Of a stretch of 64,000 nucleotides of DNA, positions 43,732-44,844 are shown in pieces (the stretch's first letter is position 1; every line of letters starts with the position of its first letter). Source of the DNA: an uncultured Acidimicrobiia bacterium. GTDB lineage: Bacteria > Actinomycetota > Acidimicrobiia > Acidimicrobiales > AC-14. The notes below the pieces were generated by a model. It was given only the letters and a program-made list of their open reading frames with translations. It was not told the DNA's origin and ran no database searches. The DNA lies in NCBI GenBank assembly GCA_963836205.1, contig CAWIIV010000014.1, positions 96,001 to 160,000 of the forward strand, written 5' to 3'. A program made the position numbers and the translations under genes.

Positions 43732-44069
43732 CAGTTCCATCCTCTGTTTCCAGAGGAACCAGACTATGCCTTCATCTCATCAAGGCCTCGAGGATCAGAG
43801 ATCCCCCAGGACAGGTTGAGCGCCCGCGTATTGCGTCGGCCGTAAATTTGCCACATCCCAACACTACTTAGGGAGAATGACAGTGACCGGCGCCTCTCCC
43901 CGAAGGGATCAGTCGTTACGGGGCCATACCTGAGTTCAGGCAGAGGGCTTCCCACGGCATTGCCCGTCGTCTATAGCCTTGTCCTTGAGGCAAGGCAGAC
44001 GGTGTGGGTTTCGCCGTTATGAGCGGGTTCTTTCACGGAGTCGCCTCCGTGTAGGGCAAGTTTTGACTT
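43732..44069 (-). mobile_element. Group I intron (IA-like, 338 nt, no ORF) after 23S U1951
   Basis: Removal restores TTGTCGGGT|AAGTTCCGACC; ends in G; P1 GGGU/GCCC; P10 AACUU/AAGUU; P3 CCCGC/GCGGG; P4 ACGGC/GCCGU; P7 GACUG/UAGUC with P7.1/P7.2 extensions; P9 CCUCUG-GAAA-CAGAGG. Confidence 0.93.
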
Positions 44070-44109
44070 ACCCGACAAGGAATTTCGCTACCTTAGGACC
44101 GTTATAGTT

Positions 44110-44844
44110 CCCTATATCCCCATATCGCTATGAGGGGTGGACCATATCTTCATCCGTCAGCTTCGATGACGGAGCTCTGCGTATGGCCTCTGAGGATTCC
44201 CAACACCTCAACACACCGATGATCTGCTCATCGGTGCGGCGTCGCTTGCCACCGCGGTTCATCGGGCTCCTCAATGCGAGGATTTCGATGATGCCTGCGG
44301 GTAGCAGGTGACGATCTGACTGGACGAGGCTCGTGATCTGACGGAAGACCGCCAGGTCGTTGGCCTTGGGGCCGCGCAACGGAAAGCGCTCGAAGAACGG
44401 GAAGACCCGCACCGCGAGCTCCGTCGGCCTTGTGACTTCAAAGTAGAAGACACCATCGCCGCGGCCTCGCACCGTTCCCACTCCGAAGGTCTGCCGCAGA
44501 AACGATGGCGCTTCTGGACCGACCTGCGAAACGTTGAACGACAGCGAGACCCGCCATGGCAGGCCACGGTCACCACTCCGACGGATGGGAACGTTGAAGC
44601 TTCCTTCTCCATCGACGAATCCCGCGATGTAGTGACCTACATCGGATGGAATCCGGTCCAACCAGTTCGAGGACCTGGGCCTTTCCTGCTGATTGTCCGC
44701 ACCGATCGGATTGTCACTGCTCACCCCACACACTCTACAAAGAGGGTGCGACATGAACGAGTACCGTCGGATACACGGGGTTTCCAGCATATAGCAGAGT
44801 TTTTGTCTGGCGGATTACTCCACCAGGGCCGCAACTTGGACCTT
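44110..44844 (-). mobile_element. Group I intron (IB-like, 735 nt) after 23S U1911, carrying a homing endonuclease gene
   Basis: Removal restores GGCGGCCGT|AACTATAACGG; ends in G; P1 GGCCGU/GCGGCC with U-G pair; P10 AGUU/AACU; P/Q AUGCUGGAAA/AAUCAGCAGG; P3 CUCUGC/GCAGAG; P7 GGCCAU/AUGGUC; P8 UCCGUCA/UGACGGA. Confidence 0.95.
44128..44724 (-). CDS. Single-motif LAGLIDADG homing endonuclease (start GTG 44724 or ATG 44754)
   Basis: YIAGFVDGEGSF motif, SFNVSQ, FGVGTV, VFPFFERFPLRGPKAND; ORF intact. Confidence 0.93.
   Translation of the reverse strand: MSSDNPIGADNQQERPRSSNWLDRIPSDVGHYIAGFVDGEGSFNVPIRRSGDRGLPWRVSLSFNVSQVGPEAPSFLRQTFGVGTVRGRGDGVFYFEVTRPTELAVRVFPFFERFPLRGPKANDLAVFRQITSLVQSDRHLLPAGIIEILALRSPMNRGGKRRRTDEQIIGVLRCWESSEAIRRAPSSKLTDEDMVHPS

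Follow-up and report, generated by a model that had tools for sequence, protein, structure and literature searches.

In an uncultured Acidimicrobiia bacterium, two tandem introns, L1911 and L1951, interrupt the 23S rRNA gene, and this twin-intron locus is a known kind of selfish DNA at an apparently undescribed site. We think it reasonably probable, though well short of certain, that L1911 is currently mobile and that L1951 is a decayed former homing intron with a separate history, the twin being a hot-spot combination and any coupling between the two a by-product. To judge from its anatomy, each intron would remove itself from the pre-rRNA by its own ribozyme. L1911 would be the presently mobile element, with its homing endonuclease gene (HEG) in P6 and the 3' end of that gene overlapping the ribozyme core, while L1951 would have lost the endonuclease gene of its P8 loop through a deletion of ~423 nt. 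Homing by the L1911 enzyme would very probably co-copy L1951 because the sites are only 40 bp apart, a coupling that we would read as a by-product and not as demonstrated dependence.

Tandem introns and the exon between them

The features below lie in the window, that is, the whole 64,000-nucleotide stretch of DNA that was analyzed.

42782..46930, minus strand, 23S rRNA gene, host gene of both introns (RF02541, 2723 bits, model positions 1-2925)
44110..44844, minus strand, HEG-bearing group I intron L1911, 735 nt, at E. coli U1911/A1912 (boundaries, helices, covariation)
44832-44827, 44826-44807 and 44789-44784 / 44692-44687, minus strand, L1911 5' half: IGS GCGGCC, P2 and P4
44799-44794 / 44180-44175 and 44188-44183 / 44145-44139, minus strand, L1911 core: P3 and P7
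44173-44153, 44137-44118 and 44110, minus strand, L1911 3' end: P8, P9 and terminal G
44128..44790, minus strand, predicted LAGLIDADG homing endonuclease ORF, 220 aa from the ATG at 44790 (PF00961, LAGLIDADG_1, E 6e-13)
44070..44109, minus strand, mini-exon, 40 nt, E. coli A1912-U1951, an exact match to the intron-less congener G002
43732..44069, minus strand, ORF-less group I intron L1951, plausibly IA-type, 338 nt, at U1951/A1952 (RF00028, 38.6 bits; 17-homologue alignment)
44057-44054, 44051-44034 and 44027-44023 / 43827-43823, minus strand, L1951 5' part: IGS GCCC, P2 and P3
43914-43910 / 43766-43762, 43908-43897 and 43893-43885 / 43841-43833, minus strand, L1951 P7 region: P7, P7.1 and P7.2
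43821-43815 / 43781-43775, 43756-43741 and 43732, minus strand, L1951 3' part: P8, P9 and terminal G
43797..43799, minus strand, putative scar left in the L1951 P8 loop by loss of its endonuclease gene (7-intron alignment; BLAST break at intron positions 271/273)

The 23S gene had a single match in its own genome, the sole LSU rRNA copy found in the assembly. In the Rfam LSU alignment, two inserts (740 and 339 nt) break up the H69-H71 region, and intron boundaries were drawn by direct sequence reading and by mapping against G002. The exon ending ...GGCCGU(1911) is followed by intron 44844..44110 (735 nt, final G) and then by AACUAUAACGG; this second exon runs AACUAUAACGG...GUCGGGU(1951) and is followed by intron 44069..43732 (338 nt, final G) and then by AAGUUCCGACC. 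The alignment and the congener mapping thus place both introns, and the 40 nt between them, exactly where the first-pass annotation had them. The mini-exon contains the H69 loop and 3' strand, H70 and the start of H71. A nested twintron was considered and rejected, the introns being in tandem with 40 nt of genuine 23S exon between them. The same annotation had the P10 of L1911 and the P1 of L1951 both using this exon; by sequence reading they take opposite ends of it (~1912-1915 versus ~1948-1951) and do not overlap.

At the gathering threshold, an Rfam scan of the window returned rRNAs alone, and the introns show up only under E-value reporting, as RF00028 matches at 43740-44079 (38.6 bits, E 6.4e-8) and 44118-44242 (19.3 bits, E 0.04) against a gathering score of 50. 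The model mixes subgroups, and the L1911 match is interrupted by the ORF. The U-1 and terminal G rule is kept by 27 of 28 introns from 18 mapped relatives' genomes. In L1911, P1 pairs exon GGCCGU with guide GCGGCC, and in L1951 it pairs exon GGGU with guide GCCC, which is invariant in 17 homologues; both have a U.G at the 5' splice site. Compensatory double changes occur at 35 of 61 predicted pairs across 17 ORF-less L1951 introns. Across 53 homologous L1911 introns, compensatory pairs number 8/8 in P2, 3/6 in P3 and 4/7 in P8, with P4 and P7 invariant and hence uninformative on covariation, and P6 and P9 poorly specified. On these sequence hallmarks and covariation, both inserts are genuine, structurally complete group I introns. 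The difference in subclass put forward earlier, IB-like against IA-like, is plausible. Hairpins P7.1 and P7.2 are typical of subgroup IA, which makes an IA-type label plausible for L1951. The L1911 core is common to the L1923/L1931 introns, classed as IB4 in the literature, and an IB-type label is plausible.

Two DNA and two RNA sequencing runs were examined, and at most 0.29 of sampled words were found in any run. Contigs from the RNA runs contain exon-exon joints with the 338-nt skip (21 in X15 and 2 in X16) and with the 735-nt skip (2 in X15), joints that intron-less relatives would also yield. Intron coverage in the contigs of the two RNA runs is very low and possibly DNA.

Endonuclease genes and intron histories

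The L1911 ORF opens inside the P6 loop and runs through P7, P3', P8 and P7', with its TAG stop within P9; the insertion point is fixed by comparison with ORF-less L1911 forms. Besides the ATG at 44790, in-frame starts occur at ATG 44754 (208 aa) and GTG 44724 (198 aa), the latter giving the length of most among the best 120 of 2045 relatives. The protein covers 0.99 of a 166-position HMM profile built from 47 L1911 enzymes, its PDB relatives are I-SmaMI/I-OnuI domains (E 1e-29), and it contains the motif IAGFVDGEGSF, in which the catalytic acidic motif GFVDGEG is kept. The L1911 HEG is therefore intact, single-motif and of family length, and is a predicted endonuclease. L1951, by comparison, has no sense ORF of at least 70 aa, so that the first-pass description of an HEG-bearing and an ORF-less partner stands (PF00961, E 6e-13, for the former).

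An alignment of L1951 from G000, G004, G028, G003, G016, G035 and L093 locates the scar. At its position G003 carries ~423 nt, and the relatives' insert encodes a LAGLIDADG protein of 173-188 aa; within L1951, a contig from soil DNA is longer by 440 letters at 43797/43817. In the same soil run, an L1911-like intron was seen on a separate contig. Both G003 and G035 keep an intact L1951 HEG (173 aa and 188 aa, respectively); it is broken by an internal deletion in G016, and absent from the ORF-less introns of G000, G004 and G028, where clean deletion occurred twice with differing boundaries (G000/G004 versus G028). Since congeners keep an HEG in the P8 loop and ~423 nt are deleted here, L1951 appears to be a decayed former homing intron. 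The coexistence in one family of intact, internally deleted and cleanly deleted forms resembles the homing cycle of Goddard and Burt, that is, invasion, fixation, endonuclease decay and loss, as outlined in the available part of PMC4059233, and the L1951 data are in no conflict with it.

By the criterion that came with the first-pass annotation, the two introns are distributed largely independently. Among 18 mapped genomes, L1951 occurs without L1911 in four of six carriers, and its ribozyme identities are 94.6% for G003-G004, 93.0% for G016-G028, 92.6% for G000-G003 and 90.6% for G000-G004. L1951 is evidently old in the family, its sequence mirroring host trees. L1911 was found in 2 of the 17 family genomes with a complete region, and these two are non-sister species: in the rpoB tree G000 groups with G001 (96/96) and then with G002, and G004 is not its sister. 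Both G000 and G004 nevertheless have the same L1911/L1951 pair with an identical L1951 deletion boundary, which fits transfer or retention as one unit; G003 retains its L1951 HEG though its ribozyme is the closest to that of G004. Beyond the family, L1911 is present in 52 of 80 loci encoding relatives of its endonuclease, mostly in Acidimicrobiia. The nearest relatives from outside the class sit at L1917 (in the 7 of the 80 loci that mapped there), in other phyla and with 41-52% identity to the L1911 endonuclease. As far as these comparisons go, L1911 and L1951 have different histories.

The H69-H71 hot-spot and competing explanations

Of the sampled Acidimicrobiia genomes with this region, around one-third have it split at the hot-spot, where introns at L1911, L1923, L1931 and L1951 form at least 12 combinations. 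Statistics come from an unselected sample, not chosen by intron content, of 72 intron-bearing genomes with 106 introns. The class-wide survey covers genomes among the matches listed, 38 split genomes queried individually and one complete family. Outside the counts are the split genomes G105, G176, G182, G362, G174, G371, G372, G392 and G422, ~23 partial-match genomes, and G373, G477, G480, G503 and G034, which contig ends truncate; G039, found via intron similarity, was kept out of the statistics. From the locus set, L037 (identical to the G004 locus) and L080 (cut by a contig end) were dropped. The 80 L1911-related loci were chosen by HEG similarity and therefore cannot reveal ORF-less L1911.

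One could suspect an artefact, either faulty assembly or binning of the rRNA operon or intervening sequences of the RNase III type in place of spliced introns, given that the source assembly is a draft, in 25 contigs and with 88.6% completeness, and that the Rfam intron scores lie under the gathering cut-off. We give this next to no credence: the same arrangement occurs in another species, G004, within a 585-kb contig, dozens of long contigs and complete, closed chromosomes also have L1911, and the inserts have clear group I hallmarks and covariation and sit in universally conserved helices, away from known intervening-sequence sites. Both the mis-assembly and the intervening-sequence readings were rejected on the G004 copy, the many other loci and the covariation. 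Some LAGLIDADG proteins are maturases, and the L1911 protein might be retained chiefly as a splicing helper instead of a mobility enzyme, which would account for the ORF staying intact although the intron mostly tracks the host tree: L1911 introns diverge in step with their hosts (Spearman 0.87 and 0.76), yet 40 of 48 full-length HEGs in the loci selected by HEG similarity are intact. The remaining 8 of 48 are already degenerate, however, as is one of four in unselected genomes (G264), the catalytic acidic motif is preserved, and ORF-less L1911 introns exist in G262 and G324, so the protein is dispensable; we regard a maturase role as the main reason for its retention as very unlikely.

A more serious contender, which we still lean against, is a driver-passenger arrangement (trans-homing), in which the ORF-less L1951 would persist and spread as the L1911 endonuclease cuts intron-less alleles 40 bp away and repair off the donor copies both. 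Under the same tentative reading, the cluster would act as a unit, a homing haplotype in which a single endonuclease gene is live. L1951 is without an ORF, and only 40 bp separate it from the site of L1911, within the co-conversion range taken from the available text of PMC3984707, so hitchhiking by co-conversion, as first proposed for this locus, is mechanistically plausible. The pair with its identical HEG-deletion scar in two non-sister species argues for it, as does the company that ORF-less introns keep. In the unselected sample, an intron with an intact HEG is found 8-40 nt away for 17 of the 21 introns that are ORF-less, as against 12 of the 62 that bear an HEG themselves (Fisher OR 17.7, p 7e-7, with relatedness ignored and counts that are not phylogenetically independent), which is not expected were the sites cycling independently. 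ORF-less forms make up 2 of 44 single introns versus 19 of 62 introns in multi-intron clusters (p 0.001), and two-intron clusters have exactly one intact HEG in 19 of 22 cases and none in 0 of 22. Partner introns are ORF-less in 48 of 59 cases at 50 analyzable L1911 loci, the reverse case of an ORF-less L1911 beside an HEG-bearing L1931 occurs in G262 and G324, and one MAG has identical pairs in two rrn copies (L045/L046). There is also precedent in phage T4, whose mobE mobilizes the defunct I-TevIII intron in trans (PMC2790892, in the part available). Within families the association is not significant, however: in the two families with all genomes listed, an ORF-less intron accompanies 4 of 15 intact-HEG genomes versus 0 of 2 others (f1, p 1.0) and 5 of 13 versus 3 of 11 (f42, p 0.68), so hitchhiking stays unproven. 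G474 and G496 have solitary ORF-less introns, and in G264 the driver next to one is decayed; these genomes rule out the stricter statement that such introns are never without a live neighbor. How far ORF-less L1931 partners differ from one another shows no correlation with the distances among the adjacent L1911 introns (Spearman 0.11), and for L1923 partners the partial correlation with L1911 distances is merely 0.31. Finally, L1951 follows the host tree and once had its own HEG. Of the hitchhiking proposal, then, the shared pair and scar and the usual proximity to an HEG-bearing intron hold up, but L1951 does not depend on L1911 by origin.

In its widest form, trans-homing would treat the Acidimicrobiia H69-H71 region as a single homing haplotype, in which usually one live HEG, at 1911, 1923, 1931 or 1951, drives the cluster and ORF-less passengers 8-40 bp away survive by intron-to-intron co-conversion. 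A rival endonuclease cutting the mini-exon could then replace the neighboring set, and the pair seen here, L1911 with its HEG beside an ORF-less L1951, would be an example of this haplotype, common to two non-sister species; we find this conceivable but somewhat doubtful. We prefer to see a mobile L1911 beside a decayed L1951: given their different histories, the twin would be one of many hot-spot combinations and no purpose-built system.

Comparison with described introns

A close described counterpart is in Coxiella burnetii, where Cbu.L1917 (IB2) and Cbu.L1951 (IA3) flank a 34-nt exon, the HEG, a single-motif LAGLIDADG gene, lies in L1951, and exon skipping has been seen (available portions of PMC10136302 and PMC1995217). 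As far as those portions describe it, the Coxiella pair shares with ours two group I introns of differing subgroups, a very short exon, a position in H69-H71 and one LAGLIDADG gene. It differs in its upstream site (1917 versus 1911 here) and exon length (34 versus 40 nt). Here the upstream intron holds the endonuclease and L1951 is ORF-less, the reversal noted in the first-pass annotation and borne out by the same sources, and the host is a free-living soil actinobacterium. In phage trans or collaborative homing, gene conversion by a neighbor's endonuclease carries along an intron without a working enzyme (PMC2790892 and PMC3984707, in part). For the T4 mobE/nrdB intron, as the accessible account has it, the helper is a free-standing gene and dependence was shown genetically; here the helper would be the gene of another intron 40 bp off, and dependence would be read from distribution alone. 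To our knowledge, an enzyme-less intron riding on a neighbor's enzyme has been demonstrated experimentally in one phage T4 case only.

Clusters of introns in this part of the gene have been described elsewhere. In CPR bacteria, group I introns cluster at 1917-1952, and one and the same intron can be ORF-bearing, degenerate or ORF-less in hosts dispersed across the tree (PMC11270868, available part). In an archaeal contig, 8 nt separate the LSU/1923 intron from the LSU/1931 intron (PMC6125680, likewise). Our locus differs from these multi-intron genes in its lineage, Acidimicrobiia, and in the additional site 1911. Common soil Acidimicrobiia, outside the CPR, thus host a busy rRNA-intron hot-spot, a natural data set of dozens of species, four sites and three decay states that can test whether endonuclease-less introns survive via a neighbor's enzyme. 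Such introns also lengthen and split 23S genes in metagenome bins and may mislead rRNA annotation.

Our literature search found no description of L1911 as a group I insertion site. Position 1911 is absent from the bacterial sites in Table 1 of PMC1995217 and from the CPR sites named in PMC11270868 (1917, 1931, 1952, 2593, 2604 and 2657), as far as the accessible text of each extends. In L1917 introns of Synechococcus sp. C9 and Thermotoga subterranea, the ORF extends from P6 via P7, P3 and P8 into P9 (PMC1995217, in part), a layout that L1911 matches; unlike them, L1911 is inserted 6 nt upstream and its guide pairs with GGCCGU. Position 1911/1912 of the 23S rRNA is apparently undescribed as a site of group I insertion, and it has an endonuclease lineage to itself. 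It enlarges the short list of bacterial group I sites, and the L1911 enzymes are candidate meganucleases of new specificity. As a separate observation, the 5' core of L1911 matches L1931 introns from the same family at 92% identity, whereas L1911 introns other than those of G000/G004 reach at most 90%. Its 3' core is clearly L1911-type, and a mosaic origin is possible.

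Intron boundaries and ribozyme structure

The window holds a complete minus-strand rRNA operon (Rfam), whose 23S locus measures 4149 nt against the 2925 positions of the Rfam model. In the Rfam alignment, the stretch GGCCGUAA[...]ACGGUCCUAAGGUAGCGAAAUUCCUUGUCGGGUAAG[...]UCCGACC is interrupted by two large insertions of 740 and 339 nt. Boundaries were set by sequence reading and by mapping onto the intron-less congener G002, and the intron and exon coordinates of the first-pass annotation match them exactly: the twin-intron feature is real and was precisely described.

Features of the rRNA operon and its intron-split region
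42609-42725, minus: 5S rRNA (Rfam)
42782-46930, minus: 23S rRNA (Rfam)
47308-48832, minus: 16S rRNA (Rfam)
5' exon, minus: last base U1911 (mapping on G002)
44844-44110, minus: L1911 intron, 735 nt (mapping on G002)
44128-44790, minus: LAGLIDADG ORF, 220 aa, start codon uncertain (LAGLIDADG_1 match, E 6e-13)
44109-44070, minus: mini-exon A1912-U1951, 40 nt (mapping on G002)
44069-43732, minus: L1951 intron, 338 nt (mapping on G002)
3' exon, minus: first base A1952 (mapping on G002)

The 23S gene is 1224 nt longer than the Rfam model; the introns contribute 1073 nt of this, and about 150 nt of extra sequence lies elsewhere in the gene. The assembly, in 25 contigs and 88.6% complete, contains the split region once.

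U is the last base of both 5' exons, and G that of both introns. In L1911, base pairing between the guide GCGGCC (44832-44827) and exon GGCCGU places a U1911.G pair at the splice site, and AGUU (44836-44833) can form P10 with AACU, the first exon bases. The L1951 guide, GCCC (44057-44054), base-pairs with exon GGGU, and AACUU (44062-44058) can pair with AAGUU in the 3' exon. Across 53 L1911 introns, compensatory pairs support P2 (8/8), P3 (3/6) and P8 (4/7), the registers of P6 and P9 being imperfect, and P4 and P7 are invariant. Alignment of 17 ORF-less L1951 introns yields helices P2 to P9, with compensatory double changes in 35 of 61 predicted pairs, plus extra hairpins P7.1 and P7.2 between P7 and P3', the mark of subgroup IA.

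The earlier concern that splicing might skip the mini-exon has a precedent in Coxiella, where tandem group I introns (IB2 and IA3) flank a 34-nt 23S exon and skipping was seen (PMC10136302). Against it, the window's introns use different guides at opposite exon ends, a kind of difference that suppressed skipping in an engineered system described in the same paper. Public sequencing runs contained at most 0.29 of the sampled words. Exon-exon joints across both introns occur in contigs of two soil metatranscriptome assemblies; because intron-less relatives yield the identical sequence, these joints are not proof of splicing in this organism.

Endonuclease genes and the insertion site

Alignment with ORF-less L1911 introns from two relatives (304 nt in G262, 358 nt in G324) places the L1911 ORF in the P6 loop, its last ~45 codons spanning P7, P3', P8 and P7' and its TAG stop lying in P9, the layout that Haugen et al. 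(PMC1995217) describe for L1917 introns. The ORF covers 0.99 of a profile built from 47 L1911 enzymes, and its protein is similar to individual domains of I-SmaMI and I-OnuI (E 1e-29). In the databases, most of the protein's 120 best relatives have 198 aa, equivalent to a start at GTG 44724 in the window; in the stop-to-stop frame, the residues before about position 46 are translated from conserved ribozyme sequence, common to L1923 and L1931 introns. The 5' core (44673-44795) shares 90-92.5% identity with same-family L1931 introns (G001, G005, G006, G028, G030) but no more than 90% with L1911 introns other than those of the window's genome and G004; the 3' core is clearly of L1911 type. Such a mixture could have arisen by core exchange between neighboring introns.

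At E <= 1e-3 there are 2045 relatives of the endonuclease, with 71-96% identity for the best 120 clusters, and the nearest endonuclease-bearing loci are labeled as MAG sequences of uncultured Acidimicrobiia, Acidimicrobiaceae or Actinomycetota. When species-representative genomes were scanned by endonuclease similarity, 52 of the 80 loci returned carried an L1911 intron of 729-752 nt. Loci whose enzymes are 41-52% identical belong to other phyla, and all seven of these that could be mapped in the region carry L1917. A literature search turned up no paper combining "L1911" with "group I intron"; neither the bacterial sites in Table 1 of PMC1995217 nor the CPR sites mentioned in the body of PMC11270868, whose full list is in its supplements, include 1911. 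Position 1911 of 23S is apparently an undescribed insertion site. The reverse arrangement also occurs: in G262 and G324, the L1911 intron is ORF-less and the endonuclease gene lies in an L1931 intron (784 and 783 nt, respectively) that follows 20 nt downstream.

The window's family shows all stages of decay of the L1951 endonuclease. Congeners carry L1951 introns of 748-761 nt with an intact LAGLIDADG ORF in the P8 loop (173 aa in G003, 188 aa in G035), G016 has an internal deletion of ~140 nt, and the window's genome and G004 have one clean deletion of ~423 nt in common; the deletion in G028 has other boundaries. Lack of the ORF is therefore a derived state. The surviving 3' end of the gene overlaps P8, J8/7 and P7. 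In soil DNA run X4, an 812-nt contig carries L1951 with 440 extra letters at 43797/43817 (P8 loop), and a second contig, 806 nt long and of comparable depth, spans L1911 with 50 differences; a natural pair of L1911 with an endonuclease-bearing L1951 therefore probably exists.

Intron histories in the family

Among 58 family genomes, 23 matched the region; 18 genomes were mapped, 17 from the family plus G039 from the same order.

Introns in the mapped genomes other than the window's (G035 and G061 are unpublished genomes, on which their entries rest)
G004: L1911 + L1951, 735 + 338 nt, sharing 94% and 90% identity with the window's introns
G001, G005, G006, G011, G012, G071, G072: L1931 only
G013, G061, G039: L1923 only
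G030: L1923 + L1931
G016: L1923 + L1951
G028: L1931 + ORF-less L1951
G003: L1923 + L1931 + L1951 in a row, leaving exons of 8 and 20 nt
G035: L1951 only
G002: no introns

In G003 (locus L020, RNA-sense index 1394-3205), L1923 is ORF-less (307 nt), L1931 (716 nt) has a broken endonuclease frame (0.61 profile coverage) and L1951 (761 nt) an intact endonuclease. Introns spaced 8 nt are seen in an archaeal contig (PMC6125680, Table 1), and 23S genes with several introns in mixed ORF states are described in CPR bacteria (PMC11270868). Family members G025 (L028) and G029 (L030) carry a related-core intron far downstream, near E. coli 2604 by local offset. Introns at ~1931-1933 in 11 loci (L034 of G071, L050, L051, L052, L054, L057, L060, L062, L063, L065 and L088; 333-379 or 777-783 nt) cannot be placed so as to have a U preceding the intron together with a terminal G; either the canonical terminal G is missing or the insertion point follows G1933.

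In rpoB, the window's genome groups with G001 (96/96) and then G002, with G003 and G004 outside, and the 23S-exon tree agrees. L1951 ribozyme identities (G003-G004, 94.6%; G016-G028, 93.0%; window-G003, 92.6%; window-G004, 90.6%) mirror the hosts, which suggests that L1951 was passed down within the family. The L1911 plus ORF-less L1951 pair, with its single deletion scar, is nonetheless common to two non-sister species, the window's and G004; G001 has L1931 only, G002 nothing, and G003 has kept its L1951 endonuclease. Two scenarios fit: the pair may be ancestral and repeatedly replaced, or may have moved as a unit. The L1923 and L1931 sites are still present in the window's 40-nt exon; a rival enzyme cutting there, followed by repair from a donor without L1911 and L1951, would erase both introns.

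Hitchhiking or independent introns

The first-pass annotation proposed that ORF-less L1951 hitchhikes by co-conversion when the L1911 enzyme cuts 40 bp away. A neighboring endonuclease that mobilizes a defunct intron is established for T4 mobE (PMC2790892). The pair does recur in G004, but among the 18 mapped genomes four of six L1951 carriers lack L1911, which itself is present in only two. At least one further intron (L1923, L1931 or L1951) accompanies L1911 in 49 of 50 analyzable loci, and 48 of 59 partner introns are ORF-less; this set is biased because its loci were picked by endonuclease similarity. A second sample, not picked by intron content, was therefore built from the window's family, a second fully listed family (61 genomes, of which 27 contain the region) and 38 split genomes taken from 401 that were drawn evenly across the class and of which 218 contain the region. 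It came to 72 intron-bearing genomes and 106 introns, with ORF states assigned by site-specific profiles. Here an intact-endonuclease neighbor adjoins 17 of 21 ORF-less introns versus 12 of 62 endonuclease-bearing ones (odds ratio 17.7, p 7e-7, uncorrected for kinship). Clustered introns comprise 33 intact, 10 degenerate and 19 ORF-less, versus 29, 13 and 2 among single introns (p 0.001, likewise uncorrected), and 19 of 22 two-intron clusters hold exactly one intact gene.

Within each fully listed family, however, carrying an intact gene does not make a genome significantly more likely to contain an ORF-less intron (4/15 versus 0/2 genomes, p 1.0, in the window's; 5/13 versus 3/11, p 0.68, in the second), and solitary ORF-less introns exist (G474, G496). 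L1911 distances track host distances (correlations 0.87 and 0.76), and the distances of ORF-less L1931 partners do not correlate with those of adjacent L1911 introns (0.11). Coupling by co-conversion would be physically likely and fits several of these distribution patterns, but the locus is explicable without it. Judged from sequence, it appears to be two independent selfish introns, L1911 live and L1951 decayed. Two rrn copies of one MAG, on separate contigs (L045 and L046), carry identical pairs of L1911 and ORF-less L1923, with zero differences in exons and both introns, as expected if rrn copies are homogenized.
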